Part shown: piece by piece, positions 33,242 to 48,808 of the stretch | Position numbering within the stretch: the stretch's first letter is position 1 | How the letters are laid out: the number at the start of each line of letters is the position of its first letter | DNA from: Solirubrobacterales bacterium | GTDB lineage: Bacteria; Actinomycetota; Thermoleophilia; Solirubrobacterales; 70-9 | Reading direction: 5' to 3' | Assembly (NCBI GenBank): GCA_038329895.1 | Contig: JBBQNM010000004.1 | Coordinates: forward strand, 1,115-65,114 | DNA length: 64,000 bases | Notes under the pieces: generated by a model | Seen by the model: the letters and a program-made list of their open reading frames with translations, nothing else | Told to the model about the DNA's origin: nothing | Database searches by the model: none | Position numbers and translations under genes: made by a program

Positions 33242-33315
33242 CGGGGCGTGGCGCAGTCTGGTAGCGCATTCGGCTGGGGGCCGAAAGGTCGCTGGTTCAA
33301 ATCCAGTCGCCCCGA
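33242..33315 (+). tRNA. tRNA-Pro (anticodon GGG)
   Basis: Acceptor CGGGGCG/CGCCCCG, anticodon stem TTCGG/CCGAA with loop CTGGGGG, T-arm GCTGG-TTCAAAT-CCAGT. Confidence 0.9.
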
Positions 33316-33326
33316 CTACAAGAAAG

Positions 33327-33352
33327 GCGAGCAAATCAGCATGTTTGCTCGC
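33327..33352 (+). terminator. stem-loop immediately downstream of tRNA-Pro
   Basis: GCGAGCAAA-TCAGCATG-TTTGCTCGC, 9-bp stem. No U-tract. Confidence 0.35.
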
Positions 33353-33392
33353 TACCTCCTTCTCTTGGTTCGGACTCCGACCCCGGCCTCGG

Positions 33393-33413
33393 GGGCCCAA
33401 TAAGGGCCCAATA
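33393..33413 (+). repeat. direct repeat GGGCCCAATA x2 preceded by CCCCG-loop-CGGGG hairpin (arm-type site candidate)
   Basis: GGGCCCAATA at 33393-33402 and 33404-33413. Same architecture as the GGTCCATT repeats at 43204 and 46727. Confidence 0.45.
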
Positions 33414-33501
33414 GGTGCAGATGCAGTGCCTCGCTTCGTCGGGCTCCGCGCTCAGAGGTGGATCTCTGGGCACCGTTAGCCACCTGCCGGCGAGCTTGGG
33501 C

Positions 33502-33549
33502 CACGGGTTGTGGTCCAGGTGGTCGCCGGTTCGAGTCCGGTCGCTCACC
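33502..33549 (+). repeat. tRNA-His-like 3' fragment (anticodon-loop TTGTGGT through acceptor), not a complete tRNA
   Basis: TTGTGGT loop (GTG anticodon), T-arm GCCGG-TTCGAGT-CCGGT, 3' acceptor CGCTCAC+C. No matching 5' acceptor strand upstream. Followed by a CCCC-TGC-GGGG hairpin and a T-rich tract. Confidence 0.35.
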
Positions 33550-33726: not shown

Positions 33727-33770
33727 GGCTGGGGGCCGAAAGGTCGCTGGTTCAAATCCAGTCGCCCCGA
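33727..33770 (+). repeat. 44-nt exact duplicate of the 3' part of tRNA-Pro (att-like repeat)
   Basis: GGCTGGGGGCCGAAAGGTCGCTGGTTCAAATCCAGTCGCCCCGA is identical to 33272-33315. Confidence 0.85.
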
Positions 33771-33997
33771 TTCTCAGGCTTACGCCTGTTAAGCACAGGA
33801 CAGGCACGCAGTACCACGCATAACTCCGCACGGCTCCGCAAGAACCTAGACACCTGGCAGACACCCGGGGTGTCTACGCCCCCGGCGGGAGCGCGCCGGC
33901 GCCGCCCCCGCGGTCTCGCGCCTGGGTCTGCGATCGCATTCTTGACCTGAATCTGACCTATTCCGCCGACCTAGGATCAAGACACAGGGTTAACACC

Positions 33998-34225
33998 ATG
34001 CAGAAGGTGCAGGCAAACACGAAGCTCGACCCCCGCTGGAAGCGGGAGCTGGAGCGACGTGCCGAGGCCGCGCACATGACGACTTCGGCGTATATCCGCG
34101 AGCGGCTGATGCAGCACCTCTACCGAGGCGCAGGCCATCAGGAGAACACGAACGACGAACGCCGACTTGGAGGAGTCGGCGCCGTCAAAGAACCGCTGAG
34201 GACGCAGCGGCATGAACAAGCCTAG
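33998..34225 (+). CDS. ribbon-helix-helix (CopG/Arc-like) DNA-binding protein
   Basis: KLDPRWKRELERRAEAAHMTTSAYIRERL is an RHH strand-helix-helix pattern. Overlaps the primase start. Confidence 0.6.
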   Translation: MQKVQANTKLDPRWKRELERRAEAAHMTTSAYIRERLMQHLYRGAGHQENTNDERRLGGVGAVKEPLRTQRHEQA

Positions 34226-35696
34226 CCCGCACGCGCCGACGGCCCCGGCCACAGCACGGGTCGACGAGGGAGGCGAGTGGCCAACCATTCACAAATGGAC
34301 CGACCTCGGAAACGCCGAGCGTCTCTCTGACAGCGCGGACGGAAAGCTCCTCTGGGTCTACGGGCTTGGTTGGCTGTGCTGGGACGGGAGGCGCTGGCGC
34401 CGCGACGAGTCGAACTGGGTGCTCCGGGAAGCCACGCACACCGTGCGCGGGATCTACGGCGAGGCCGCGTTTCTCAAACGGGCAGGCGGGCAGGGCGACC
34501 GATGAGGACGAGCGCCGCCAGTGGGCCGAGCAGGCGAAGGGAGCCGGGAAGTGGGCCAGGAACAGCGAGGCGGCGAACCGCATCGCCGCGATGGTCAAGC
34601 TCGCGACCGCGCAGAGCCGACTCGTCGTGGACGACGGTGCGCGAGCGCTCGACGCCGATCCGATGGCGCTCAACGTCGCCAACGGCACGCTCGACCTCGA
34701 GACCCTGACGCTACGCCACCACGACCCAGCCGAGCACCACACTCGGATCGCGAACGCGAACTACGACCCCGACGCCGACGCGCCTTTCTTCCGCGAGTGC
34801 GTGGCGAAAGCGCTGCCCGACGAGGAGCTCCGGCGCTGGGTGCAGAAGGCCGCCGGCTACTCGATCAGCGGCAAGTTCTCGGAGTTCCTATTCATCCCGC
34901 ATGGCGGCGGAGCGAACCTCAAGTCCACGATCGAGTATGCGTGGCGCCACGCGCTCGGCGACTACGCGGCCGAGGCTCCGTCCGACCTGCTGGGGGCGCG
35001 CCGCGGGAGAGTCGGCGCTCGCCGGGGCTGCTCGGCCGCCGGCTCGTCACGGCGACCGAGACCGAGCAGGGCAAGCAGCTCGCGGAGGTCTTGGCGAAGA
35101 AGCTGACCGGCGAGCCGGAGATCACCGCGAAGTTCATGCGCCAGGACTACTTCACCTACCCGAACCAGCTAGCCGTATGGCTCGCCACCAACTACAAGCC
35201 CGTCGTCCAGGGCACCGACCTCGCGATCTGGCGGCGGATCAGGCTCGTGCCGTTCGAGGTCACGATCCCGCCCGAGGAGCGACTGGAGCCCGGGGACGTG
35301 CAGGCCCGACTGCGCGAGGAGGCAGATGTGATCCTGGCGTGGCTGGTCGAGGGCTGGCGCCTGTACCAGCAGGAGGGCCTGCTGCCCGAACCCACGGCCG
35401 TGCGGGCCGCCACCGACGACTACCGGGCGGAGATGGACCCCCTGAGCGGCTGGATTACCGAAACTTTCGTCGACGATCCCGAGGGTCTCGTGCCGATCGA
35501 GTGGGTGAGGGAGTCATACGCCGACTACTGCGAGCAGACCGGAAAGCGCCCTCTCGGCGAGCGGCGCTTCAACGAGCTGATGGAGCAGCGCGGCTACTCG
35601 CGGCCGAAGTCCGCAGTCCAGTTCGATGAGCCGACTTCCAACGGGCCGATCAGGTTGCGCAAGAAGGCGTGGAGGGGCCTTCGCGTAAAGAACTGA
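34212..35696 (+). pseudogene. phage/plasmid P4-type primase / D5-like helicase, disrupted by at least two frameshifts
   Basis: The reading frame passes through three tracked ORFs: 34212..34505 (WTDLGNAERL...WLCWDGRRW), 34366..35106 (DADPMALNVANGTLDLETL...FLFIPHGGGANLKSTIEYAW) and 34521..35696 (LVTATETEQGK...WRRIRLVPFEV...DDYRAEMDPLSGW). The Walker A-like GGGANLKST deviates from GxGxNGKS. Confidence 0.7.
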
Positions 35697-35715
35697 TCTC
35701 GCCTAAGGTGGCGCC

Positions 35716-36414
35716 GTGGTCCAGCGTTTCGCGATAGCCGCTCTCTTGGTCACGGCCTTTCTGGCGCTGCCTGCATCCGCGAGCGCCTACCGCGACCCGA
35801 CGCCCGAGGAGGCCACGGCGATCACGGCGCTGCCACCGCCCTCGGAGAACCCGGACCCCTACGTCTTCAAGTACATACAGGTCTCTACCGCGGGACCCTG
35901 GGCGGTCGCCAAGGTCGTGCAGGTGGAGCCCTACGACGAGTTCGCGCTGTATCGCGGCAGCGGCGCACACTGGAAGTTTGTCGTCGCCACGAACCGGCTC
36001 TGCGCCGATGAGACCGGGGTCCGAATCCCCAGGCCAGTGCAAAAAGACCTCCGTTACAGAGAGGAATGTCACCCGACGTTCGTCCGCGACACGACGCGCA
36101 GATTCAAGAAGCATCCTCGCGTCCTGAACTTCGCTTTCCCGGCGCTCTTCCCGCCTATAAAGGTCACTGGGATCCACTGGCGCAACTGGAATGGGTGGTT
36201 CTACGGAAGTGCCAGCGGTCGCGGCAGGCTGCACTACGACACGTGTGTGCCGGACTGCGCCACCGGCAAGTACCGGAAGATCGGCGCGCGCGTGACGCTG
36301 TGGCGGATCGGGCGCTGCAGGGGTCGGGACGTCTTCACGCGGATCGATGTCGACCCCAACGGCCCGCAGCCAGTGCACACGCACAAGATCGAGTGCAGCG
36401 GCTACCTACTCTGA
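35716..36414 (+). CDS. secreted Cys-containing hypothetical protein
   Basis: GTG start, signal peptide ...FLALPASASA, Trp/Cys-rich mature part. No motif recognised. Confidence 0.55.
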   Translation: MVQRFAIAALLVTAFLALPASASAYRDPTPEEATAITALPPPSENPDPYVFKYIQVSTAGPWAVAKVVQVEPYDEFALYRGSGAHWKFVVATNRLCADETGVRIPRPVQKDLRYREECHPTFVRDTTRRFKKHPRVLNFAFPALFPPIKVTGIHWRNWNGWFYGSASGRGRLHYDTCVPDCATGKYRKIGARVTLWRIGRCRGRDVFTRIDVDPNGPQPVHTHKIECSGYLL

Positions 36415-36750
36415 GCGGCGCGTACCGCTCGGTACCACTTCTGGGATGACGCCCAGTTTCGAGCTCTTACGTGAGGGTTATCGACGAAGTGGTACGAAGC
36501 GGTACCAGGCGCCCGCGGCTGCACGGAGCGATTGCGTGACGGTTGCGCCAGAGCCGCACAGCGGCGCCCGGCGCGACCTCGGGCCCCGTCCCGGCCTCGC
36601 GTAGGACCGGTCACTGGCGGGGCTCCTCGGCTCGGCGGCGCTGCAAGTCTCACGGCTCCAGCGAGGCCCGTTTGTCGTCTCGTCCTGCGCGCGGAGACGC
36701 CGCTCGAGCTCAGTAATGTCACGCGGTGAAAAGACGGCGCTGACAAAGCT

Positions 36751-37440
36751 ATGCGCTCAGTCGGTTACGCGCGCCGCTCGCGCGAGCGAGACAACGGCGC
36801 TTTCAGCCTCGATGACCAGGAGGCCCGCATCCGCGCCTGGGCCAAGTACCGAAGGTGCGACCTGGAGGGGGTCCTGCGCGAGGACGACGTGTCGGGCGGT
36901 CTCGCACCGGACGACCGCCCGATGCTCGGGCCGGCGCTCCGACGTCTTCGAGACGGCGAGCTCGATTCGCTGGTCGTCGCCAAGTTCGACAGGCTCTCCC
37001 GCTCGCTGCGCGACTTCGCCGACCTGCTCGAGCGCAGCCAGCGGGAGGGGTGGGCGCTCGTTTGCCTGGAACCCGGGATAGACCTGACCACGCCCAGCGG
37101 TGAGGCGTTCGCCGGGATGCAGGGGGTGTTCGGCACCGCCAGTACGTCGAGCGGATGCGCGGCGCCAAGGCGGCGAAGGCCGCGGCCGGCGGCTACGTCG
37201 GCGGACCCCGCATCGCCTGGCGCTACGGCTACCGCCTCGAGCAGCGGTTGGACGGTAGGCACGAGTACATGCCGGTTGCCGAGGAGCAGGAAGCGATTCG
37301 AGACATGGCAAGCCGCTACCTGCAGGGCGAAACGCTTCGGCAGATCACCGACTGGCTGCAAGAGAGTGGAATCCCCAACGTCACGGGCAGGCCGTGGGCG
37401 CACCAGGCAGTCGGGGCGATCCTCAAGCGCGAGGGCGAGT
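36751..37440 (+). pseudogene. serine recombinase (resolvase/large serine recombinase N-terminal part), frameshifted and 3'-truncated
   Basis: Catalytic domain VGYARRSRERDNG...LVVAKFDRLSRSLRD...G(x)QGVF. It then continues in frame +1 from about 37131-37145 as QYVERMRGAKAAKAAAGGYVGGPRIAWRYGY...LRQITDWL. The ORF runs into the 3' end of the convergent gene at 37423. Confidence 0.7.
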
Positions 37441-38139
37441 CGCTCCGCCGGCGTGGCCGGGCCGCTCCCCGGGCCGTGGGGGAATCCAGGGCTGCCGGAA
37501 CGGCGCGAGCCAGTCGTGCTGAATCGCGGGGACCATGACCGCGTAGTCCGAGGCCGTGAACAGGCTGTTGTAGCGGCGGAAAAGTTGGCCAATCACGTCG
37601 ATGGGCACGTGAACGTCGTTCAGGGTAAAGGTCACTTCGGTGCCAACTGCACGAGTGTCGGTGTGGGCGACGTGGCGATCCGCGTAGCCCTTGATCGCCT
37701 CGGCGGCCGACTGCAGCTCCGCGAGCTGGCGGGCCGGGACGGATGGGTCGAGGTGGTCGCCAACATCTCCTGCGAAGTGCTCGCACCACTGCTTCTCGGC
37801 TACCTGCACCCAGTACGGGTCCTCATCCGGCTTGCGCCACAGCTCGAGCCAGAAGTCCCGCGTAATCAGCTCGGCCGCGTCGCCGACCTCGACCAAGAGT
37901 CGACCGAGGCTGGCGGCGCGGTGATCCGTGTCGGCCTGCCGGCGGACGGCCATCGCCTGATTCGCCGCGTATATATCGCGGTAGTACTCCCAGAAGTAGG
38001 AATCCGGCAGCGATCCGTGATCTTCGATCACCTTCGCGAGCTCCTGCCACGTGTCGCGGTGCAGGTACATCGTCAGGACGTTGCTTCGGATCGGCCCCTC
38101 GATCCAGCGCGTCCACTTATCGATTCGGGGGTCGGTCAT
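37423..38139 (-). CDS. hypothetical protein with AbiU2/HEPN-like architecture
   Basis: 238 aa, Trp/Tyr-rich helical protein. C-terminal ...LQSAAEAIKGYADRHVAHTDTRA... resembles the conserved R(N/D)KxxAHxD block of AbiU2-type HEPN proteins, with imperfect spacing. Confidence 0.6.
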   Translation of the reverse strand: MTDPRIDKWTRWIEGPIRSNVLTMYLHRDTWQELAKVIEDHGSLPDSYFWEYYRDIYAANQAMAVRRQADTDHRAASLGRLLVEVGDAAELITRDFWLELWRKPDEDPYWVQVAEKQWCEHFAGDVGDHLDPSVPARQLAELQSAAEAIKGYADRHVAHTDTRAVGTEVTFTLNDVHVPIDVIGQLFRRYNSLFTASDYAVMVPAIQHDWLAPFRQPWIPPRPGERPGHAGGATRPRA

Positions 38140-38536
38140 ACGGGGTCACCCTAGACCGCACCTAGCCTCCAGGACCTGAGCTGCGAACTTTCGCGAGAGG
38201 TTTCGTCCGCAAGCACTCTTAGCCTGGTAATCATGGCCAAGGCTCCCCGGAGTCCGAGCACGGTCTTCAGCCGCAGCGGACGACAGGGCAAGCGAAACCA
38301 AGTACGAGGCGGAACGGGTGTAGGGCCTTGGCTACCTGAGGGTCGTCGCGGTATCGGCCGCGGCGACCCTCTCCTTCATTTCAGGGCGCTCCCAGCGCGA
38401 GCGCGGGGTCACGAAGATGTCGCGCTGCGAGTCCACGGTGCTCTGCTGCTCCTCGGTCGGGTTGCGCTCACCACGGTGAGCAGATCCACAGAGTAACGGC
38501 GATCATCGGACGTAAAAGGGTGCGAACATACGTTCG

Positions 38537-38854
38537 GTGACGTCACAGGGTTCAGCTTATGGTCGTTTTCGTCGCTCGCTCGACCGTCGTCTCGTCGTCC
38601 CGGCGCTGGAGGCGGCGGGCGAGCTGGAACGGGTCACGCTCGCCGACGCCCTCGAACTCTGCGAACTCCTGGCACAGGCGGACGACGATCGCTTCGCCCC
38701 GGCCGCACGGCGCTGGCTGATCCGCTTTCTCGAGGAGGTGCGGCCGAGCATCGGGGAGGCGCTGATCGCCAGCGCCGCGTTATCGGAGTTGGCCGCCCGT
38801 CCCGACTCGCCGGTCGCCCTTGAAACCCTCGGCCAGCTCGTGGAGCCTGGCTGA
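38537..38854 (+). CDS. small helical hypothetical protein
   Basis: GTG start. AYGRFRRSLDRR...LADALELCELLA...AARRWLIRFLEE pattern. Followed by a strong hairpin. Confidence 0.5.
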   Translation: MTSQGSAYGRFRRSLDRRLVVPALEAAGELERVTLADALELCELLAQADDDRFAPAARRWLIRFLEEVRPSIGEALIASAALSELAARPDSPVALETLGQLVEPG

Positions 38855-38878
38855 CCTGTTGGGGCTCAGTAAAGAGCC

Positions 38879-38916
38879 GAAGGACCGCCGCCCATGGGAG
38901 GAGGCGGCGGTCCTTC
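38879..38916 (+). terminator. 14-bp perfect stem-loop downstream of 38537..38854
   Basis: GAAGGACCGCCGCC-CATGGGAGGA-GGCGGCGGTCCTTC. No U-tract. Confidence 0.4.
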
Positions 38917-38991
38917 TAAGCGCGGACAATCTACCCCCCGGTAGATGCAGATCAGGGGGCGTCGTCGAGGATCCCTAGGATCGGCACAAGC

Positions 38992-40347
38992 GTGAGCCCA
39001 AGACCTACCACCATTGACCTTTTCGCCGGCTGCGGAGGCTTGTCGCTCGGGCTCGAACAGGCCGGGTTCGATGTGGTCGCCTCCTTGGAATACGACCCTG
39101 TCCACGCTGCGACCCACGAGTTCAACTTTCCGCTGACCGCGAGCATCTGCGCTGACATCCAGGCCGTCGAGACCGACACTCTCCGCGACGCTGTCCGGGA
39201 GGGGGCCCGCCGACACGGAAACCGCTCCTCCGCAGCTCGCCGGGGCGAGGTCGATGTGGTGGTCGGTGGGCCGCCGTGCCAGGGGTTCTCGACCATTGGC
39301 AAGCGGTTGATCGACGACAAGCGCAACCGTCTCGTCTTCCACTTTTTCCGCGCAGTTGCCGACCTGCGCCCGAAATACTTCGTGATGGAGAACGTGCCCG
39401 GGATGCGGGCGGGTGGGCACGCCGGCATTCTCACGCGCCTCGTCGAGGAGTTCGAGCGAATCGGCTACCAGGTCCCGAAGCCGAAGATCCTCAACGCTGC
39501 CGACTACGGCGTGCCCCAGTCGCGAACCCGTCTCTTCGTTCTGGGGGCCCGCGAGGACCAAGCGCCGGTCAAGCACCCCGGTCTGCGAGTCCGTCCGGTT
39601 GCCAAGAGGCTCGGAGAGAAACGGGTCGACGCCGATCTGCCAGACGGCCCTACGGTCTGGGACGCCATCGGGGACCTGCCCGACCTGGACACCTTCGACG
39701 AGCTGGAAAAGACTGATGAGGTCCGCCTCTCGGCGGCGCAGCTACGCGATTCGGAGCGGTCGAGTAGCGAGTACGCGCGGCTGCTCCGCGGACTCCAGAC
39801 AGACACCGGCGACCTGTCGCACCCGCGCGCGGGCGACCCTAGGCTCCTGACGAGCTCCCCCAGGACTCGGCACACTGAGCTCTCGATTTCGCGCTTCGAC
39901 GCGACCCCGCCGGGGGAGACCGAGCCGGTCAGCCGGTTCTACAGGCTTCCCCCGGAAGGGCTCTGCAACACACTGAGAGCTGGCACGGGGAGCGAGCGAG
40001 GGGCGTACACCTCCCCCCGGCCGATCCACCCGACTCTGCCTCGCGTCATTTCCGTCCGTGAGGCTGCGAGGCTGCACTCGTTTCCGGACTGGTTCCGCCT
40101 GCACGCCACGAAGTGGCACGGCTTCCGCCAGGTGGGGAACGCCGTCGCCCCGCTAGTTGGGCGTGCCGTCGGTGACGAGATCCGCGCCAGCCTCGGGGTG
40201 GCGGCGACGCGGCCGGACTCTGCGGTAGAGCTCGGCCCGGTTGGGCTCCTTCGCATGGCGATGGCGGAAGCGACCGACTTCTACGGGGCGGACCCAGACC
40301 AGGTCCCGCCGCCGCGAAAGCGAAGGACCGAGTCCGTAGCCGCGTGA
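38992..40347 (+). CDS. DNA (cytosine-5)-methyltransferase
   Basis: Motif I IDLFAGCGGLSLG, motif IV GGPPCQGFS, motif VI ENV, motif VIII QSRTRLFVLG, motif X QVGNAVAP. Confidence 0.92.
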   Translation: MSPRPTTIDLFAGCGGLSLGLEQAGFDVVASLEYDPVHAATHEFNFPLTASICADIQAVETDTLRDAVREGARRHGNRSSAARRGEVDVVVGGPPCQGFSTIGKRLIDDKRNRLVFHFFRAVADLRPKYFVMENVPGMRAGGHAGILTRLVEEFERIGYQVPKPKILNAADYGVPQSRTRLFVLGAREDQAPVKHPGLRVRPVAKRLGEKRVDADLPDGPTVWDAIGDLPDLDTFDELEKTDEVRLSAAQLRDSERSSSEYARLLRGLQTDTGDLSHPRAGDPRLLTSSPRTRHTELSISRFDATPPGETEPVSRFYRLPPEGLCNTLRAGTGSERGAYTSPRPIHPTLPRVISVREAARLHSFPDWFRLHATKWHGFRQVGNAVAPLVGRAVGDEIRASLGVAATRPDSAVELGPVGLLRMAMAEATDFYGADPDQVPPPRKRRTESVAA

Positions 40348-41150
40348 CCGACACGAGCCGCTATGGGCAGATCATCGAGCACATATTCCTTTCGGGACAC
40401 AAGGAAGGGGCGACAGAAGTTGACTTCACGCGAGACGAGATAGAGAGCGCCGCGAAGGCCCTCAAGATCGCCCTCCCGAAGAATCTCGGGGACGTTCTCT
40501 ACTCGTTCCGCTATCGCCGCGAGCTGCCTAAGTCCATCTCGGACCGAGCGCCCGAGGGCAAGGTCTGGATCATTAGGCCCGTCGGGAGGGCCAAGTACCG
40601 ATTCGTTGCGGTCTCCACGGCCCAAGTAGAGCCGAACGAGCTCATGAGCGCGATCAAGGTGCCGGATGCGACGCCGGGCCTGATCACGCGCTGGGCCCTC
40701 AGCGACGAGCAGGCTCTCCTCGCGAAGCTCCGCTACAACCGGCTGATCGACATCTTCTCGGGCGTTACCTGCTACTCGCTCCAGAATCACCTGAGGACGT
40801 CGGTGCCGGCGATGGGCCAGGTCGAGACGGACGAGGTCTACATCGGCGTGGACCGCCGGGGCGCCCAGTACGTCTTCCCCGTGCAGGCCAAGGGGGGGAG
40901 CGACAAGCTGAGCATCGTGCAGATCGAGCAGGACTTCGCGATGTGCGCCGATAAGTTTCCGCACCTAGTGTGCAAACCCATCGCAGCGCAGTTCGTAGGC
41001 GACGACCTGATCGCCCTCTTCGACTTCGAGGAGAACCCCGAACAGGGAGTCTCGATCCAATCCGAGAAGCACTACCGGCTCGTTCCTGAGGGCGATCTGT
41101 CCGACGAGGAGATCCGGGCCTACGCCGAGGACCTCCCGCCGTCGAAATGA
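40344..41150 (+). CDS. putative type II restriction endonuclease (PD-(D/E)xK-like) partnered with the m5C methyltransferase
   Basis: GTGA overlap with the methyltransferase stop. QVETDEVYIGVD...YVFPVQAKGG fits a D...(E/Q)xK core. No named family recognised. Confidence 0.6.
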   Translation: MTDTSRYGQIIEHIFLSGHKEGATEVDFTRDEIESAAKALKIALPKNLGDVLYSFRYRRELPKSISDRAPEGKVWIIRPVGRAKYRFVAVSTAQVEPNELMSAIKVPDATPGLITRWALSDEQALLAKLRYNRLIDIFSGVTCYSLQNHLRTSVPAMGQVETDEVYIGVDRRGAQYVFPVQAKGGSDKLSIVQIEQDFAMCADKFPHLVCKPIAAQFVGDDLIALFDFEENPEQGVSIQSEKHYRLVPEGDLSDEEIRAYAEDLPPSK

Positions 41151-41578
41151 CAGACACGCGAACCCCCGAGAAACGCAGCGAGATCATGGCCGCAGTCGGG
41201 AGCCGCGACACTGGCCCAGAGGTCGCGCTCCGTCGGGCGCTCTTCGCCGCTGGCGCGCGGGGGTGGCGATGCAACTACAAGCGGGCACTCGGGCGTCCCG
41301 ATATCGCGTGGCCGCAGCGGAAAGTTGCAGTGTTCGTGGACGGAGCCTTCTGGCACGGCCACCCCTCGCGCCACCGCCCCGGTCGCTCGGGCCGCTACTG
41401 GGACCACAAGATCGAGCAGAACGTCGCAAGGGACCGCCGGGTTGACGCGGAACTGACGGCCTCGGGATGGGCGGTCCTGCGCTTTTGGGATTTCGAGGTG
41501 AGCAAGGAGCTTCCGAGGGTCGTCGATGAGGTCCTACAAATCCTGGCCCACCGCCGCAGCGAGGCAAAGGCGGCATGA
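41147..41578 (+). CDS. vsr: very-short-patch repair endonuclease
   Basis: TPEKRSEIMAAVGSRDTGPEVALRRAL...GRPDIAWPQRKVAVFVDGAFWHGHP...KIEQNVARD...GWAVLRFWDFEV. ATGA overlap with the upstream gene. Confidence 0.9.
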   Translation: MTDTRTPEKRSEIMAAVGSRDTGPEVALRRALFAAGARGWRCNYKRALGRPDIAWPQRKVAVFVDGAFWHGHPSRHRPGRSGRYWDHKIEQNVARDRRVDAELTASGWAVLRFWDFEVSKELPRVVDEVLQILAHRRSEAKAA

Positions 41579-41850
41579 CCGAGACGAAACGCGTCTGGCG
41601 GAGTGGTGTCCGGTTCGACTGCCCGGATTGCGGCCGCCTCTGGAAGGACGACGATAAGCACGCCGAGGAGCTCGTAGACGAGTGTGCAGAGTGCGGAGGC
41701 ACGCTGCGGATGGTCGGCAAGGGGGAGCAGAGGGTCGAAGGGGCCGACTGGTTTCGGTGCCTGGATTGCAAGTCGCTCTTTATGCGCCGCCGTGGCGAGG
41801 TAGTTCCGACCCAGAACCGCTCTGGCTTCGACGAGTTCACCGAGTTCTGA
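41575..41850 (+). CDS. zinc-ribbon protein (three CxxC pairs), unknown function
   Basis: CPDC, CAEC and CLDC motifs in 91 aa. ATGA overlap with the vsr stop. Confidence 0.6.
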   Translation: MTETKRVWRSGVRFDCPDCGRLWKDDDKHAEELVDECAECGGTLRMVGKGEQRVEGADWFRCLDCKSLFMRRRGEVVPTQNRSGFDEFTEF

Positions 41851-41917
41851 CCCAGCGAGTTGGCAGGCGCTTTCTCGACCTTTCCGCGCCGTTTACGGGG
41901 TTCTCAGGCACGGGAAC

Positions 41918-41946
41918 TTGACTTAGACCCGAGATTTCCCATAATG
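41918..41946 (+). promoter_or_regulatory. sigma-70-like promoter candidate
   Basis: TTGACT (41918-41923), 16-17 nt spacer, CATAAT/ATAATG (41940-41946). Unusually AT-rich and consensus-like for this genome. Confidence 0.55.
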
Positions 41947-41951
41947 GGTGG

Positions 41952-42080
41952 TGGTTGGAGTGAGCTCCGACCAATGGGAAGCCCCGAGTCAGGTCGGGAT
42001 CCTTCCTAGGGCTAGCAGCCCATACGCCTGGGACCCGTGCGTCCCCGGTTTCCCTCAGGGGCCTTCGGGCCTCTTTTTTT
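41952..42080 (+). ncRNA. candidate structured small RNA or cis-regulatory leader (about 130 nt), family unknown
   Basis: Lies between the promoter above and an intrinsic terminator. Hand-foldable hairpins GGAG-TGAG-CTCC, CCGACC...GGTCGG, GGGCT-AGC-AGCCC and GGGAC-CCGTGC-GTCCC. No convincing ORF: the tracked 41948..42352 ORF reads through the terminator. Confidence 0.45.
42057..42080 (+). terminator. rho-independent terminator with UUCG tetraloop
   Basis: AGGGGCC-TTCG-GGCCTCT followed by a run of T (42074-42080). Confidence 0.7.
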
Positions 42081-42113
42081 ATGTCCAAAACCGCCTGAAA
42101 GGAGGTGAGAGCA

Positions 42114-42284
42114 GTGGACTGTGCAGAGGAGATGATCGTCTGGGCTCGGGTCCTTCTCGAGGCCGGGTATCCCTCCTGCCTGCTGGTCGAGTACCTGAGC
42201 CGCGAGTTTCGCCTCACGGCTCGAGAAGCGGTGCTCGTAACACTGGAAGCGCAGCAACTGGGCACGACAACCCTCGTCGCATAG
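42114..42284 (+). CDS. small hypothetical protein (56 aa)
   Basis: GTG at 42114 preceded by AAAGGAGGTGA. Translates to VDCAEEMIVWARVLLEAGYPSCLLVEYLSREFRLTAREAVLVTLEAQQLGTTTLVA. Below the ORF-track length cutoff. Confidence 0.45.
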   Translation: MDCAEEMIVWARVLLEAGYPSCLLVEYLSREFRLTAREAVLVTLEAQQLGTTTLVA

Positions 42285-42616
42285 CAGCGGAGATTCTCGC
42301 TGCCCTCATCCAACCTCCGGGCGATCCGGGGATCAGAAAGGAGTGGTTATGAGACGAAAAGTCTCAGTCCGCATCTCGCTCTCGGTGCTCGGTGACTTCG
42401 AGCTCGAGTTCGAGATGCACCGACCTGCGCCGCCGGCCCGCGAGTGGCGGGGTTCGCGCCGACGCGAATCCCGCCGGCCGGCGGCGAGGGTTGTCAGCCC
42501 CTCATCCACGCGCCCCTTACCAGGTGAGAAGCCTCAGGCTGCCCCGATCACGCACGCGCGGCAGATCCTCGATCCGCGCACAGCGCACCACGAAGTACCG
42601 CTCGCGCCGCCCGGAT

Positions 42617-42886
42617 GCGGCGGTCTATAGGGGACGGGCCGATATCGGGAAGTTCTGGGACGAGTGGCATGAGCTGTGGAATCTGGAAATTGAGCCCTCG
42701 GAAATACGCGATCTCGGTGACGCCGTCCTGGTGCGCGCGGTACTCCGAACACAAGGCAAGTCGAGCGGGGTGGAGGTGGAGCGGTCGATTGGCTACGTGT
42801 TCCAGTTCGAGGACGGCCTGGTCCGGAGGGCTACGGCATATATGACGCCGCAGGAAGCACTCAAAGCCGCTGGGCTGCGGGAGTAG
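42617..42886 (+). pseudogene. NTF2/SnoaL-like gene, C-terminal two-thirds only (5'-truncated remnant)
   Basis: AVYRGRADIGKFWDEWHELWNLEIEPSEIRDLGDAVLVRAVLRTQGKSSGVEVERSIGYVFQFEDGLVRRATAYMTPQEALKAAGL lacks the usual MSQENVE.. N-terminus. The upstream part of ORF 42392..42886 is Arg/Pro-rich run-on. Confidence 0.5.
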
Positions 42887-42889
42887 GGG

Positions 42890-43102
42890 ATGTCTCAGGA
42901 GAACGTCGAAATCGCGCGGCGAATGTGCGCCGCCGCCTGGCGCAGACCCGAGCCTGACTACGACACGATCAATGCGCTTGGCCACCCCTCTCACGAGCTT
43001 GCCCGGGAACGTCTGCGTCGAGCCTATGGCGCAAACGTCGTGCCTATGCGTTCCAAGAGGTCGGGCGCAGATCGGTCGCCAGCGACGGGGAGGGCTAGAT
43101 GA
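42890..43102 (+). pseudogene. NTF2/SnoaL-like gene, N-terminal fragment only
   Basis: MSQENVEIARRMCAAAW...INALGHPSHEL matches the family N-terminus, then degenerates. Ends 25 nt before a tRNA-Pro 3' fragment. Confidence 0.4.
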
Positions 43103-43126
43103 CAAGCCGATTTCGCGGCAGTTTGT

Positions 43127-43143
43127 TCCAGTCGCCCCGACTA
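43127..43143 (+). repeat. 17-nt copy of the extreme 3' end of tRNA-Pro plus its downstream base context (att-like)
   Basis: TCCAGTCGCCCCGACTA equals 33302-33318. Followed, as at the intact tRNA, by a stem-loop (AAGAAAATCGCC...GGCGATTTCTT). Confidence 0.6.
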
Positions 43144-43203
43144 AAGAAAATCGCCAACTTGCGGCGATTTCTTGCTTGGACGTAGGTTCGACAACCCCGC
43201 GAC

Positions 43204-43224
43204 GGGGTCCATTTAGGGTCCATT
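43204..43224 (+). repeat. left inverted repeat GGGGTCCATTTAGGGTCCATT (internal direct repeat GGTCCATT x2)
   Basis: Preceded by hairpin CCCCG-CGA-CGGGG. An inverted near-identical copy lies at 46727-46747. Confidence 0.75.
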
Positions 43225-43252
43225 CCTCTCAGCAGCGTCCAGCCGGCTAGCG

Positions 43253-43316
43253 GCGCCTTGCTCAGAGCCACGGTGTACGAAACCGAAGGTCACAGGTTCG
43301 AATCCTGTCGGGCGCG
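43253..43316 (+). pseudogene. decayed tRNA-Arg(ACG)-like sequence
   Basis: T-arm ACAGG-TTCGAAT-CCTGT, 3' acceptor CGGGCGC, and an anticodon-like loop GTACGAA. The D-arm is truncated (GCTCAGAGC) and the stems are mismatched. Confidence 0.4.
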
Positions 43317-43614
43317 TTCCGTCTGTCTCCTTGAGACGCCGGGTTCTTCCCATTGCAGAGCCGGATGGGGTGACTGGGTCTGAATCCGGAGTTCCGATGC
43401 TCTCCGCGCCCATCCGGAGGTTTCCGCGAGGTCGTGGTCTCATCCTGGTCTCATTTCCTGGGCATCGCGGACTGCCGAAGCGAAAACCGGCTCCGCGGCG
43501 CTGCTGCTTTCACGCGAAAGCAGCAGTGGCGCAGTCCCTTCCCAGCCGCATGCACCGGCGCCCAATTCCGCTCGGGGCGATGAGCACCACTTGGCTCAAC
43601 CCTACACTCAAGCG

Positions 43615-45018
43615 ATGGCTGAGAAGCGTCGAGTAATCCGCCTCGAGGGACCGCGGTACGCGCGCGTGCGCTACGGACGGGCAACGCTGACGATTGCTCG
43701 CTGCGGGATCCTCAGCATGGGAGACTTGGGCAAGTCAATCCACGCCTACCAGCGCGAGGAGCTGAGCGCCGAGGAAGTGTGCGCTGCGTTTGTTCGCCGC
43801 CGCGTCCGCGAGCACTCGCCGAGCTTCGACTGGGAGACGGCCGATCCGCAGCGCTTACTGCGCCTAGTCGCTGAAGCCTCAGAGGAGCCCAAGTTTGCGG
43901 CGACCGACGCCGGGTCGGTCGCCGATGAACTCGCCCGTGCGGCCGATGCCGAGCTGAAGCAATTGAAGGAGGCGCTGCAAGGAATCGCGGTGCCAGTGAT
44001 CAAGAAGCTCAGCGACTTGTTCGACTCCAAGAAGTACTCGCCGATCGGCAAGCTGCAGGCTGATGCGGCGGCGAAGGCAAAGCTGTTCGATCTCACCGGA
44101 TCTAGCCGGTTGCTTCAGCAGATGAAGGCCTCCCTGCCGGACTTGAGCAAGTCCGGATTCGCCGGAGGCAGCGTGCGAAACCAGCACCTGAAGCAAATCG
44201 GCGAGATCACTCGGGCCAACGCGCAGATTCCGAAGCTGACCGATCTCGGAATCACCTCGAAGGTTCTGGACCCGGATTGGTTCAAGGCCGCCGGCTGGAT
44301 GCGCACGTTGCCCGACCCGGCGCCGTTCTTGCGTCGGCTCCAAGAGGCGACCGCCGGGATCGTCGAGCAGTTCAAGGCGGCATTGCCCGCCAACTGGCGC
44401 GAGCTTGAGCCCGAGGAGGTCGAGCAGGCCGTCGAGCTGATGAAGACCGAGGGCTGGGGCCTGGCCTGGGTCCCGCGCGAGGAGATCCTGCGCCTGTTGC
44501 TAGCGGCGGTGACGCATGAGGAACGCTGCGCGGTGCTGATCGAGCACCGGGAGCAGATCATCGAGGACGTCGAGCAAGCCCTCGGGAAGGTCGAGCGCGA
44601 GGACATGCTGTACCTGGCAGGCGCGGGAGAGAAAGCGATCGCCGGCTACCGCGACGGCTATCCGGAGCTCGCTCAAACCTACGCCGCCGCTGCGATCGGC
44701 GAGGTCATTCACGGCCCCCTCGGCTGGGAGGGTTTTACGGAGGTTCGCCAGGCCTTCAAGGACAAGGACCCGATGCACGGTGTCCAGTACGCCTACTTCC
44801 CCTTCTTCGCTATGGGCCACGCCCTAATGCGGGTGCTCGATCGCTTCGAGAAAGCAGGGGCCGGGTTCAACCGCGCCCTGACGGTTCACCGGATCGGCTC
44901 GCCGCACACCGAGGCCAATCTGCTGATGGTGCTGATGCTCTTCGCCGGGCTCGTGCTCGAGGTCGAGTGGCTGCTGAATCGCCACGACGTCGACCAACTC
45001 GACGAAGAGGCTGTCTGA
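43615..45018 (+). CDS. uncharacterised 467-aa protein; C-terminal helical domain with HEPN-type Rx4H motif
   Basis: Clean ORF with normal amino-acid composition. C-terminal ...RFEKAGAGFNRALTVHRIGSPHTEANLL... carries the Rx4H. No other family signature recognised. Confidence 0.65.
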   Translation: MAEKRRVIRLEGPRYARVRYGRATLTIARCGILSMGDLGKSIHAYQREELSAEEVCAAFVRRRVREHSPSFDWETADPQRLLRLVAEASEEPKFAATDAGSVADELARAADAELKQLKEALQGIAVPVIKKLSDLFDSKKYSPIGKLQADAAAKAKLFDLTGSSRLLQQMKASLPDLSKSGFAGGSVRNQHLKQIGEITRANAQIPKLTDLGITSKVLDPDWFKAAGWMRTLPDPAPFLRRLQEATAGIVEQFKAALPANWRELEPEEVEQAVELMKTEGWGLAWVPREEILRLLLAAVTHEERCAVLIEHREQIIEDVEQALGKVEREDMLYLAGAGEKAIAGYRDGYPELAQTYAAAAIGEVIHGPLGWEGFTEVRQAFKDKDPMHGVQYAYFPFFAMGHALMRVLDRFEKAGAGFNRALTVHRIGSPHTEANLLMVLMLFAGLVLEVEWLLNRHDVDQLDEEAV

Positions 45019-45048
45019 CCGCGGCTACCCGTTGCCGCCCGCCTCCGC

Positions 45049-46314
45049 CTAGTTCTGCGCGTCTGCTTCGGCTACTTCCTCGGAGACCATCCGCCACTTA
45101 CCCTTTGTGGCTGGCACGTAGCGGCTGACGAAGGCGTAGTCCGGGCCCTCCGGGCTGAGGTTCGCTTCCTCGTCGGAGACGGGACGTGCCTTCTCCATGC
45201 GCTGTTTGACGTCAGCCGGGATCTCGCGATCAGCCTCGTCTCGTGGCTTCCCGAGCCGTACCTCCAGCGATTTCGCACTCTCGCGCCAGTCGGGTCGCAT
45301 GTGCTTGTCCCAGAGCCGGGTCACTGCGTTGTCGATGGTGGAAGGCGGATACGGGGCGAAGGCCAGGACGCCGAGGTCTTTGATCGGCTCGGGCAGGGCG
45401 TCGTAGTGCTCGTCGAACTCGTGCAGCGCCGACTTGAGCTCCTCGCCGCCTAAGTACGACTGGTCTTCGCGCAGAAAGAGCGGCACCGTTCGCTGGTGCA
45501 GGCGGTCGCTGGAAGTGAAGACCATGGCGAACGGCAGGTAGTAGAGATAGGCCATGTCGGCCTTGTTGCTCGCCCGCTCGCCGGATATGAAGCTGCGGTG
45601 GATGCCGAGGTAGAAGACCAAGTCGACCTTGAGCACGTGGGTCAGATAGGGCGCGAACTCATCAAGCCGGGGCCGCCCGACTGCCTGCCAGCGGGTGACG
45701 GCGAGCCGCTGGTACTCGTCTGGGACACCGAGGACATCGAGCGCCAGCTGGAACACCTGCGGGTCGTCGCTTGAGCAGAAGGAATCCACAAAGTCCTTCA
45801 ACTCCTCGAGGGTGGAGATCTTGGTGTCGGTTGGGAGGACGTTCTTCAGCGCGCCGACGACTGCGGCCGGGTCCTGCTGGGCGAGCTCCGCTCGCCAGTC
45901 CCGCGCTACTTCGCGCTCAATCTCGAGGAACTCGTGGTTTCTCCAGCGCAGCAGTGCAGCCTGCTCGGGAAACTCGCCGACATGCAGGCCGACGCTGCCG
46001 TCGGGCGCGACCTTTGTCTCGCCCTCACCGATCAACACTTGGCCGGTCATCGGGATCTCTTCGCCCGTTAGCTCGCCGAGCAAGATGTGACGGTGGTGGA
46101 CATTGGGGTAGGCCTGCGACGGGGTCTTCTCGGCGAGCATCCCCACTAGGTCGTCTGGCGTCTTTCCTTTCGCGACGTCCTTCTCGAGGTCAGCGAGGGT
46201 CTCGACGTAGAAGACCGGGACGACGTTCGCCAAGAAAAAGGCGTCGAACCACACCGCTTCATCCATGCTCAATGCCTGAAGCGCTGACTTGTCGAAGGTC
46301 GTGATCGGTCCCAT
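45049..46314 (-). CDS. uncharacterised 421-aa protein; split PIN-like motif set
   Basis: ATG at 46314: MGPITTFDKSALQALSMDE...FYVETLADLEK (Asp, Glu positions). Later NKADMAYLYYLPFAMVFTSSDRL (Asp and T/S-x-D positions). The upstream 39 codons of the tracked ORF are run-on. Confidence 0.65.
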   Translation of the reverse strand: MGPITTFDKSALQALSMDEAVWFDAFFLANVVPVFYVETLADLEKDVAKGKTPDDLVGMLAEKTPSQAYPNVHHRHILLGELTGEEIPMTGQVLIGEGETKVAPDGSVGLHVGEFPEQAALLRWRNHEFLEIEREVARDWRAELAQQDPAAVVGALKNVLPTDTKISTLEELKDFVDSFCSSDDPQVFQLALDVLGVPDEYQRLAVTRWQAVGRPRLDEFAPYLTHVLKVDLVFYLGIHRSFISGERASNKADMAYLYYLPFAMVFTSSDRLHQRTVPLFLREDQSYLGGEELKSALHEFDEHYDALPEPIKDLGVLAFAPYPPSTIDNAVTRLWDKHMRPDWRESAKSLEVRLGKPRDEADREIPADVKQRMEKARPVSDEEANLSPEGPDYAFVSRYVPATKGKWRMVSEEVAEADAQN

Positions 46315-46726
46315 GCGTTCATGCTGGCACGCGCGAGCCCGCTGTCTGCTTGGATCGCTTCCTTGTCTGCGCTGAGGTGCGGAGCGCTCCCAGCCGAACT
46401 CGCTTCTCCTTCGCGCGAAAAGCAAGAGCACTTACCGGTCCGAAATGAGGATGTTGCGACGAAGTGTCGAGCGAGCGATCGGTGCGCCAGTGGTGCGCCA
46501 GTCAGAACCGAATTCGAGCGGTTAATGGCGGTCCGTAGCGGCCCGATTTGGCTTGAGCAAGCGATTTTCGCCGAATTCACGCGCGCGGATCCACATCTCT
46601 CCTCTCTGTCAAATCCGCGGCGGCCTCCGTCGCCTTGCTCCTTTGGTCCCGCCGCCGAGACTCGGTGACCGGCGCCAGCTCGAACACCCTCTGCATGCCA
46701 GCTTGCTCTGCCCCTGCCGAGGGGAA

Positions 46727-46747
46727 AATGGACCCCAAATGGACCCC
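46727..46747 (-). repeat. right inverted repeat (minus strand reads GGGGTCCATTTGGGGTCCATT)
   Basis: 20/21 identity to 43204-43224 in inverted orientation. Adjacent hairpin CCCCGTG...CACGGGG. Confidence 0.75.
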
Positions 46748-46811
46748 GTGGCGCGGCACGGGGAGTCGCAGCCCTACGTGAAACCATCGCAAAAGCGGTG
46801 GTTTCGATGAA

Positions 46812-46851
46812 TCGGGGCGACTGGCAGCGACCTTTCGGCCCCCAGCCGAAT
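46812..46851 (-). repeat. tRNA-Pro 3'-half copy with an internal 8-nt deletion, inverted orientation
   Basis: Minus strand reads ATTCGGCTGGGGGCCGAAAGGTCGCTG--CCAGTCGCCCCGA (T-loop GTTCAAAT missing). Followed by stem-loop GAAACCACCGC-TTTT-GCGATGGTTTC. Confidence 0.7.
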
Positions 46852-47013
46852 ACTCCACCCTCCCGAGCGCATGCGGATCGTGCGGCTGAAGAAGGAGTGC
46901 AAACCGTGCGTCAACTCCGACTTCGAGGCGAATTGAGAGCATCTCAACACGCATGAGCCGCGCCTATCCGGCCTCAGACGACCCCTTCTCGCCGTCGTCA
47001 TAATCCGCGTGTC

Positions 47014-47038
47014 GGGGGTTCGAGTCCCTCCCCCGGCA
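47014..47038 (+). repeat. tRNA 3' fragment (T-arm identical to tRNA-Leu-TAG, different acceptor)
   Basis: GGGGGTTCGAGTCCCTC + CCCCGGC + A. No matching 5' half upstream. Lies at the transition to the next gene block. Confidence 0.45.
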
Positions 47039-48370: not shown

Positions 48371-48808
48371 TCAGTCACTTGGTACACCGGTGCCACTCAG
48401 CGAACTCACTAACTCCGTGGGGTCAAAGTAGGCTTCTTCCAGAACTGTCTTTCCGTTCGCGATGGTGTGAAAGGTGGACACTCGGTACGACACTTTGGAT
48501 CGGGTTGCGGGGTATCCGTACAACTCACCAGAATGGATCCCTGAAACGACTAGCTGGAGCGCAGCTCGATCCCCAGAAGTCGTCACGTGCCGAACCTCGA
48601 TGCGGAAGTCGTCGAGGCCGCTTAGGAGTTCCTCGAGGTACCGCCGAAGCTCATCATGACCTTTGATCTCCGCGCCGTCAGCGGTGATCTCTCGGACTAG
48701 GCAGTCGTCCGCGTAGTAGTTCATGAGGCCGTCAATGTCGCCGGCATTGAGGCTCGCGACTTGGGCCCGGACGATCTGCTCAGCGGACTGCGGGCTGGAT
48801 TCGGCCAC
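48371..48808 (-). CDS. SnoaL/NTF2-like (ester-cyclase-like) protein
   Basis: SLNAGDIDGLMNYYADDC...GHDELRRYLEELL...ALQLVVSGIHSGELYGYPATRSKVSYRVSTFHTIANGK. Confidence 0.7.
   Translation of the reverse strand: MAESSPQSAEQIVRAQVASLNAGDIDGLMNYYADDCLVREITADGAEIKGHDELRRYLEELLSGLDDFRIEVRHVTTSGDRAALQLVVSGIHSGELYGYPATRSKVSYRVSTFHTIANGKTVLEEAYFDPTELVSSLSGTGVPSD

Follow-up and report, generated by a model that had tools for sequence, protein, structure and literature searches.

A segment bracketed by inverted repeats in a Solirubrobacterales tRNA-Pro hotspot: a probable junction of decayed island cargo with two undescribed genes

We analyzed a 64,000-nt stretch of DNA from a Solirubrobacterales bacterium (contig JBBQNM010000004.1 of GenBank assembly GCA_038329895.1, positions 1,115 to 65,114), here called the window, with a focus on a segment at 43204-46747 that is bracketed by inverted repeats and contains two open reading frames (ORFs), ORF A and ORF B. 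The segment is probably, with a rough probability of 0.55, a junction of decayed cargo left by integrative elements for which tRNA-Pro(GGG) was a recurrent target, and neither a mobile unit nor a two-gene system. The original prediction for this DNA had taken it for a repeat-bounded cassette encoding a candidate defence or toxin module of a HEPN-like and a split PIN-like protein. The wording that our analysis supports is that the segment holds two undescribed nuclease-like cargo genes, which are unrelated and stand alone; the formal likeness of ORF B to PIN proteins and of ORF A to HEPN proteins ends at the motif level.

Repeats flanking the segment

The bracket consists of the 21-mer GGGGTCCATTTAGGGTCCATT at 43204-43224 and a 20/21 inverted copy at 46727-46747, as originally described; with up to three mismatches allowed, these were the only two sites in the 64 kb, and none occurred in 100 shuffles. 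A repeat finder extended the arms to 43195-43224 and 46727-46756 (30 nt, 90%, 27/30) and returned an additional outer inverted pair at 43128-43155 and 46797-46824. Both 21-nt copies are embedded in diverged blocks of ~100 nt that start with the tRNA-Pro 3' end CCAGTCGCCCCGA and continue, in the same order, with a stem-loop, ACGTAGG, a G/C hairpin, and the direct repeat, an architecture that had been noticed earlier and that alignment and folding bore out. The inner 30 nt are identical at 27 of 30 positions, compared with ~65-70% over the remainder of the blocks, and the tRNA-derived outer ends of the two blocks differ in length. The relevant features are as follows.

33242-33316, + strand: intact tRNA-Pro(GGG), source of all tRNA-Pro fragments (ARAGORN; Rfam tRNA, 64.5 bits)
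33317-33422, + strand: block 1, with a stem-loop directly after the tRNA, hairpin CCCCGgcctCGGGG, and a direct repeat of 11-nt period, GGGCCCAAT twice (alignment; folding z = -2.9)
33727-33770, + strand: direct repeat of the tRNA-Pro 3' half (anticodon arm through 3' end), 44 nt without a mismatch (self-BLAST, 100% identical to 33272-33315)
43128-43140, + strand: tRNA-Pro 3'-end fragment CCAGTCGCCCCGA, which opens the left block (sequence match and alignment)
43141-43224, + strand: block 2 (left), with a stem-loop at 43146-43171, ACGTAGG at 43180-43186, hairpin CCCCGcgaCGGGG at 43195-43207, and direct repeat GGGGTCCATTTAGGGTCCATT at 43204-43224
43253-43316, + strand: decayed tRNA-like sequence whose anticodon loop reads ACG (Arg) (Rfam tRNA at 27.7 bits and E 0.045, short of the cut-off of 29 bits; uncalled by ARAGORN)
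43501-43526, no strand assigned: hairpin whose 11-bp stem is perfect and whose loop has 4 nt, located ~90 nt upstream of ORF A (repeat finder, self-BLAST)
43615-45018, + strand: ORF A, 467 aa, of a rare family (ORF list; start supported by homologue N-termini MAEKRR...)
45049-46314, - strand: ORF B, 421 aa, of a large unannotated family (ORF list; start supported by homologue N-termini MGPITIFDKS...)
46727-46811, - strand: block 3 (right, inverted), with direct repeat GGGGTCCATTTGGGGTCCATT, hairpin CCCCGTG..CACGGGG, ACGTAGG, and a stem-loop
46812-46851, - strand: inverted tRNA-Pro 3'-half copy, with 27 nt identical to 33268-33294, an 8-nt T-loop deletion, and CCAGTCGCCCCGA at 46812-46824

The tRNA-Arg-like sequence (as a sub-threshold Rfam match) and the 11-bp hairpin were thus both present as the original prediction had reported. 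Its inventory of repeats was right for the two flanking blocks but had overlooked the third block, which follows the intact tRNA-Pro and shares the architecture of both, and the tRNA-Pro fragment at 33727-33770. Each of the three blocks folds into two hairpins, the stem sequences of which differ between blocks. The direct-repeat units vary in concert, with two units of GGGCCCAAT in block 1 and two of GGGTCCATT in blocks 2 and 3; this concerted change points to a pair of putative protein-binding sites that co-evolve with their protein, possibly a recombinase or an accessory protein, as judged from the sequence.

Elements that integrate into tRNA genes leave identity segments that run from the anticodon arm to the 3' end of the tRNA, and where the integrase crosses over in the anticodon loop, these segments are typically 45-50 nt long. 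The sequence CCAGTCGCCCCGA occurs four times in the window against 0.19 expected: in the intact tRNA-Pro, at 33758-33770 (+), at 43128-43140 (+), and at 46812-46824 (-). Self-BLAST also matched 33268-33294 to 46851-46825 in inverted orientation (27 nt, 100%), so that inserted DNA is bounded by tRNA 3' repeats in the form of perfect 44-nt and 27-nt copies. The copy at 33727-33770 opens an island with primase, serine recombinase, and Dcm-Vsr genes, which lies at 33771-43127 between tRNA-Pro 3' repeats. On the basis of the tRNA copies and the content of this island, the region is a tRNA-Pro integration hotspot with several decayed elements.

Because the block architecture follows the intact tRNA-Pro and because a fourth tRNA-Pro fragment exists, the repeats are best read as attachment (att)-type scars, not transposon ends. 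Each flanking block would then be a scar that comprises a copy of the 3' part of the tRNA, a terminator-like stem-loop, a G/C hairpin, and two direct repeats spaced by 11 nt. One scar with its cargo, ORF B, would now lie inverted relative to the other scar and ORF A, probably through an inversion, and the apparent inverted-repeat bracket would arise because of this relative orientation. The cassette reading of the inverted repeats was not supported by these results: the repeats belong to att-type blocks derived from tRNA-Pro, the hotspot holds four tRNA-Pro copies, and neither a recombinase nor a transposase was found inside 43204-46747 (ORF list, Pfam, NCBIfam, and tblastn). Inverted repeats in a tRNA integration hotspot can therefore mimic a cassette, as this scar analysis shows.

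When identical flanking proteins were used to look for empty sites or polymorphism, every contig recovered came from the same organism; a second copy of the segment was not found. One of these contigs, from a Logan assembly of the same organism (L030), was 100% identical over 43414-47026 and crossed the right repeat in the same orientation; it breaks at a tRNA-like fragment near 47010-47026 and not at the right repeat.

Several other candidates were rejected. An insertion sequence (IS), a transposon, or a miniature inverted-repeat transposable element would account for the inverted repeat, but there was no transposase, no further copy in the window, and no definable duplication; a target-site duplication could not be defined because the tRNA-derived repeat ends are of unequal length. 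A metagenome scan for the 21-mer yielded 18 stretches. Most of the matches were not related elements but unrelated tandem GGGGTCCATTT arrays. The 21-mer was also rejected as a transposon end: its copy in L025 is situated immediately outside an IS21-like element, the true ends of which are TTCCGGAAATTCTGAGCC repeats. An exact GGGGTCCATTTGGGGTCCATT found ~45 nt after tRNA-Val(GAC), with no integrase nearby (L017, 12-32, and L027, 2752-2772), was likewise rejected as a related element. That site belongs to an unrelated organism of 54% G+C content (GC), with glycosyl hydrolase and transferase genes near, and may be a coincidence.

The GC of the segment (0.639) is below that of the first 29 kb of the window (0.689), in line with the low GC originally noticed; it exceeds that of the downstream flank (0.617), however, and low GC is therefore not specific to 43204-46747. 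Across the window, GC falls from ~0.69 to 0.60-0.65 from ~29 kb to the end, a range that spans the tRNA cluster, the islands, and downstream metabolic genes.

Co-occurrence of ORF A and ORF B

The two ORFs of 467 and 421 aa, which the original prediction had called correctly and which contain the motifs that it quoted, converge with a gap of 30 nt and, since they converge, do not form an operon. We scanned genomes for ORF B, using closer sequences as the query; 147 stretches were obtained, the best 80 loci were kept, and the genome of the window itself was absent from the species representatives scanned. Only one of these best 80 loci contained an ORF A-like gene, in a metagenome-assembled genome (MAG) of the Conexibacteraceae (L048), 3.3 kb upstream of the ORF B homologue. 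Conversely, none of six independent ORF A contexts contained an ORF B homologue. Conserved neighbourhood, as expected of a two-gene toxin-antitoxin or defence system, was thus not observed (1/80, non-adjacent; 0/6), and ORF A of the main clade has another partner. The two-gene module is already largely refuted by this lack of co-occurrence, and we consider a functional link between ORF A and ORF B very doubtful.

The L048 co-occurrence is unlikely to be pure chance because the ORF A family is rare; it is most simply explained if both genes are cargo of the same kind of island. On one strand of L048 (3595-12386) lie the ORF A-like C-domain protein gene, a 114-aa gene, a gene for an 881-aa TPR protein, the ORF B homologue, and a Mrr_cat_2-ResIII helicase gene.

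Family and predicted structure of ORF B

ORF B had no match in Pfam, PADLOC-DB v2 (none at E<=1), NCBIfam, or PHROGs. A word-indexed search found more than 1,140 relatives, all annotated as hypothetical and without Pfam domains, and an exhaustive HMMER scan at E<=1e-3 found 1,814 representatives of clusters at 50% identity, 544 of which scored below 1e-30. Among the best 80 loci, the closest were in Solirubrobacterales and Thermoleophilia (56-71%), and others were in Patescibacteria, Acidobacteriota, Gamma- and Deltaproteobacteria, Gemmatimonadota, Planctomycetota, Nitrospirota, Elusimicrobia, and further groups; DNA similarity to the closest loci was limited to the coding region (46335-45085). 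Relatives were nearly absent from sequenced plasmids (one partial match in Granulicella), were not found in INPHARED phages, and occurred in 4 of 2.9 million IMG/VR contigs. The family thus comprises at least 1,800 clusters at 50% identity in more than ten bacterial phyla, mostly uncultured soil lineages and probably scattered by horizontal transfer, with no model in Pfam, NCBIfam, PADLOC, or PHROGs.

Clustering of three genes on each side of 78 ORF B loci gave no neighbour family in more than five of them, so ORF B stands by itself. Pfam domains recognised among 143 immediate neighbours were Mrr_cat (4), RtcB (3), phage integrase (3), DEAD/Helicase_C (3), ResIII (2), TIR (2), SPFH (2), small terminase (2), transposase, D12 methylase, and ApeA. 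Particular neighbours were a Mrr-ResIII helicase, a NACHT/STAND NTPase, a PLD-ResIII-DUF3427 protein, and a tyrosine integrase, and one locus (L009) is an integrative and conjugative element with a TraG-like coupling protein (TraG-D_C), a relaxase, and an ApeA HEPN gene convergent to the ORF B homologue. Many other neighbours were ordinary metabolic genes. From these counts, the neighbour mix suggests variable defence or mobilome islands, and the defence context originally proposed was upheld insofar as ORF B homologues often adjoin defence or mobile-element genes.

An RtcB RNA ligase gene or a homologous ORF lies directly upstream of ORF B homologues, on the same strand, in three related Acidobacteriota MAGs (L105, 6499-7758, Pfam-confirmed; L106, 6495-7763, homologous; L077, 5608-6054, short, 148 aa). 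These neighbours would fit a theme of RNA damage and repair, yet one lineage may account for all of them. Beside the closest ORF B homologue (71% identity) lies an array of eight SnoaL_2 paralogues of ~133 aa in tandem (L007, 8790-12041, identical to L031). Some ORF B relatives carry C-terminal fusions to DUF5677 (P0217, 703 aa, 36 bits), to a SEC-C motif (P0294), or to extensions of no assigned kind (P0185 and P0218). P0280 matches ORF B over its first 272 residues and continues with reverse transcriptase/maturase domains of a group II intron.

An AlphaFold model of ORF B built with 117 diverse sequences had a predicted local distance difference test score (pLDDT) of 94.9 and a predicted template modelling score of 0.92. 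Across these 117 members, which reach down to 30% identity, E38, W124, D253, Y259, P261, S268, and D270 were invariant and D8, K9, and S10 were conserved in at least 90%. In the model, D8 follows strand 4-7; P33 and E38 lie in the unit of strand 28-31 and helix 33-44; D253 opens helix 249-262; and S268-S-D270 ends strand 265-268, which is followed by helix 271-280 and strand 286-289. Residues 74-248 form a helical and beta-hairpin insert of ~175 aa, and a C-terminal extension of 115 aa carries an invariant GKWR patch.

For the PIN fold, the order of strands and helices and the positions of four acidic residues (hhhD..., P..V.EL, D..hAA, hhT.D) are established. Mapped onto this known fold, the conserved acids of ORF B lie past strand 1, in the helix that follows strand 2, at the start of the helix that precedes strand 4, and past strand 4. 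The split-PIN idea fits at the motif level because the acids of ORF B follow the order of the four PIN acidic residues. The original proposal of a split PIN domain was thus borne out in the four conserved acidic positions, which occupy PIN-like places in a high-confidence model, but it received no support from hidden Markov model (HMM) or fold searches; the proposed insert between the acidic positions is present, with a length of ~175 aa. The core of ORF B may adopt a PIN-like, metal-dependent nuclease fold interrupted by this insert, and we put the chance that ORF B is a PIN-like nuclease at about even, given its residue pattern and model. ORF B would most likely be a single-protein nuclease effector in conflicts with phages or mobile elements. 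If the four conserved acids form a PIN-type active site, ORF B would represent a new branch, marked by its insert, of a major superfamily of nucleases and would also be a candidate single-gene defence effector. The near-perfect model has no detectable neighbour among solved (PDB) or viral (BFVD) structures.

Family, motif, and partner of ORF A

ORF A likewise had no match in Pfam, PADLOC-DB v2 (none at E<=1), NCBIfam, or PHROGs, so that the earlier statement that neither protein can be assigned to a named family held for all four collections. Its family comprised 29 clusters in the first search, nearly all ~50% identical to the query. Three more came from a search with a profile of the C-terminal domain, which yielded four relatives in all, each of them close, and no annotated distant ones. 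The AlphaFold model (pLDDT 70) has a confident N-terminal alpha/beta domain (~10-120), a variable linker of low confidence (125-234), and a confident helical domain (235-466).

The motif GFNR-x-LT-x-H was invariant in the family, with R420 and H425 unchanged in all 29 sequences; most read RNLTQH, and the window has RALTVH. A relative that is 33% identical to ORF A (in L048) keeps GFNRHLSAH. The HEPN motif is Rx4-6H, and RNLTQH is its canonical spelling; a conserved Rx4-6H is therefore present in the ORF A family, whereas similarity to the four-helix bundle or an HMM match was not detected. Of the proposed HEPN-like character, the motif thus stood (invariant in 29 sequences and kept at 33% identity), and the fold and HMM side did not. 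The C-terminal helical domain with its RNxxxH-type motif may be a HEPN-like RNase; judged from the sequence, ORF A is a tentative HEPN candidate.

In the main clade, ORF A follows a conserved helical protein of ~245 aa on the same strand with a spacing of ~46-49 nt (L001/L002, L003, L004, and L005). The partner genes map as follows.

L001, 7070-7954: ORF A partner gene
L003, 1-918: ORF A partner gene
L004, 7158-7952: ORF A partner gene
L005, 337-1074: ORF A partner gene

The partner also forms the N-terminal extension (a mis-called N-terminus) of P0143. It gave sub-threshold matches to DUF5677 (E 0.003-0.008) and had no direct similarity to the DUF5677 part of P0217. A bona fide DUF5677 gene lies 5 kb from the ORF A pair in L001. 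No partner gene was found in the window (tblastn, best E 0.46) or in L112 and L113, the most query-like homologues in the alignment with retrievable contigs; the ORF A clade of the window stands without the partner gene.

Alternative interpretations

A number of results weigh against our interpretation of the segment and its cargo. One scar is inverted, which is unusual for tandem integrations, and the inversion that we propose is undocumented. The tyrosine integrase expected for tRNA att sites was not found in the window (by tblastn, which has limited sensitivity). The shared island of L048, which is unlikely to have arisen by chance, leaves room for a link between ORF A and ORF B. For ORF B, Foldseek searches of the whole model against PDB and BFVD gave nothing below E 0.1 (best 0.1); no PIN-clan Pfam match recurred among the 117 members, with one match to Mut7-C at E 0.087; PDB sequences searched with a spliced-core profile contained no matching PIN chain; and hhalign of the core to the only two VapC sequences among the fetched loci, too thin a template to count as a test, gave no match. 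For ORF A, no HEPN match was obtained by Pfam, NCBIfam, PADLOC, Foldseek against PDB, or a family profile against PDB sequences, and the motif loop (410-430) was modelled at a pLDDT of ~42. Because no HEPN family or structure was matched, the HEPN assignment of ORF A stays at the level of the motif. For ORF B, the family profile gave nothing meaningful against PDB sequences, no sequence-profile match to a PIN-clan family was obtained, and the PIN proteins that Foldseek returned were faint (Rrp44, 5k36_K, probability 0.09; a Medusavirus PIN protein, probability 0.15).

Another possibility is that ORF B is not a nuclease and that its D/E/D/S-D residues sit on a Rossmann-like core for nucleotide or cofactor binding or for transfer reactions, its island location reflecting horizontal transfer only. 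The top Foldseek matches, none of them significant, were the Rossmann-fold proteins UDP-glucose dehydrogenase, ketopantoate reductase, and TrpRS; searches with PIN HMMs and profiles gave no match, and the many ordinary metabolic neighbours would suit such a role. However, the Rossmann matches carry no information because their template modelling (TM) scores were below 0.2 at a root-mean-square deviation of ~20 A, the conserved columns include no glycine-rich nucleotide-binding loop, the acids follow one another along the predicted secondary structure in an order that fits PIN in particular, and patchy occurrence among phyla with variable neighbours is typical of conflict genes. We regard a non-nuclease role as unlikely.

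A more ambitious combination is quite improbable. It would make ORF B the founder of a widespread group of stand-alone split-PIN nucleases acting against phages or in abortive infection, ORF A a new HEPN RNase, and both of them parts of a loosely coupled conflict network with swapped partners, in which ORF A stands with the DUF5677-like protein or beside ORF B (in the window and L048) and ORF B is fused to DUF5677 (P0217).

We hold it to be very unlikely that ORF A, as a HEPN-like protein, and ORF B, as a split PIN-like protein, form one undescribed defence or toxin module on a mobile cassette bounded by inverted repeats. The adjacency of the genes across 30 nt inside a 30-nt, 90% inverted repeat, the conserved nuclease-like motifs of both, the distant ORF A-like gene 3.3 kb upstream of the ORF B homologue in L048, and a weak three-way link through DUF5677 (the sub-threshold matches of the ORF A partner, the P0217 fusion, and the gene near the L001 pair) would fit this proposal. 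They are opposed by the 79 of 80 ORF B loci without an ORF A-like gene and the six of six ORF A contexts without ORF B, by the convergent orientation, which is not that of an operon, by the two other genes that separate the homologues in L048, and by family sizes that differ ~60-fold. The repeats, moreover, have further copies in the hotspot and continue on their outer sides into stretches of tRNA-Pro sequence that differ in length; the cassette contains no transposase or recombinase, and a second example of it was not found, L030 being the same organism.

Finally, it is highly improbable that the segment is an invertible phase-variation switch with the 30-nt repeats as crossover sites of a site-specific recombinase such as that at 36751-38154: serine invertases are known to use short inverted repeats, a Resolvase-domain gene lies 5 kb upstream, and the inner 30 nt (27/30) are much better kept than the rest of the blocks (~65-70%), but this recombinase has 467 aa and lies in a separate island with its own tRNA-Pro repeat boundary, the convergent genes offer no obvious promoter-switch logic, and the independent Logan assembly has the right repeat in the same orientation (100% over 43414-47026).

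Genes and fragments around the segment

The island at 33771-43127 contains the following genes.

34366-35106: D5_N primase
36751-38154: serine recombinase, 467 aa, with a Resolvase domain
38992-40347: Dcm
40344-41150: unassigned protein of 268 aa
41147-41578: Vsr
42392-42886: SnoaL_2 protein

The serine recombinase was the only recombinase present, and it belongs to the neighbouring segment; a cognate integrase beside the att site was not found by tblastn, the sensitivity of which is limited. The RM/Vsr neighbours named in the original prediction were recovered as Dcm and Vsr, and the 268-aa protein between them may be a restriction enzyme. No gene corresponding to the reported Abi-like neighbour was found; the unassigned neighbours had no Pfam or PHROG match.

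SnoaL genes occur on both sides of the segment region, at 42392-42886 and at 48371-48808 (minus strand). Fragments that resemble tRNA halves other than that of tRNA-Pro were seen as a T-arm at 33523-33549, the Arg-ACG-like pseudo-tRNA at 43253-43316, and a 3' half with a CAT anticodon at 46993-47038; each sits 30-200 nt from a tRNA-Pro scar, and the last is where Logan contigs of the same organism end.

Comparison with known systems

Against the catalogued anti-phage systems of PADLOC-DB v2, neither ORF A nor ORF B had an HMM match at E<=1. Several elements of ORF B have counterparts in PIN nucleases (VapC, SMG6/PINc, and FEN/Mut7-C-type proteins with insertions): one strand has a conserved Asp at its end (FDKS); a second, which contains a conserved Pro, leads into a helix where a Glu is invariant (PxFYVETLADLxK); and a further helix that opens with an invariant Asp (DxAYLYY) precedes a strand with S-x-D at its end (FxSxDxLH). 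Its core of ~130 residues without the insert and its mobile or defence island context are also PIN-like. It differs from these nucleases in the lack of a Pfam PIN-clan match and of a significant Foldseek or profile match, in the insert of ~175 aa that separates the third strand from the Asp helix, and in the 115-aa C-terminal extension. Unlike PIN toxins, ORF B is solo, with no antitoxin-like neighbour in 78 loci.

ORF A shares with HEPN RNases (ApeA, MNT-HEPN toxins, and Abi-type HEPN proteins) an all-helical C-terminal domain and an invariant R-x4-H just before the last long helix. In size and layout it is close to ApeA (486 aa, with HEPN at the C-terminus), the gene for which is convergent to the ORF B homologue in L009. 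In contrast to HEPN RNases, ORF A had no HEPN HMM or structural match, its motif loop was poorly modelled, and the window version reads RALTVH, without the Asn. The usual partner of ORF A is a helical, weakly DUF5677-like protein of ~245 aa and not a nucleotidyltransferase.

The region as a whole differs from tandem tRNA islands in that one copy is inverted and that no tyrosine integrase was found in the window. Three of its copies also have an extra downstream architecture of two hairpins and 11-nt direct repeats that could be linked to no protein. As in tandem tRNA islands, however, successive segments are delimited by copies, perfect or nearly so, of the tRNA-Pro 3' half, and these segments carry primase, recombinase, restriction-modification, and orphan cargo genes.

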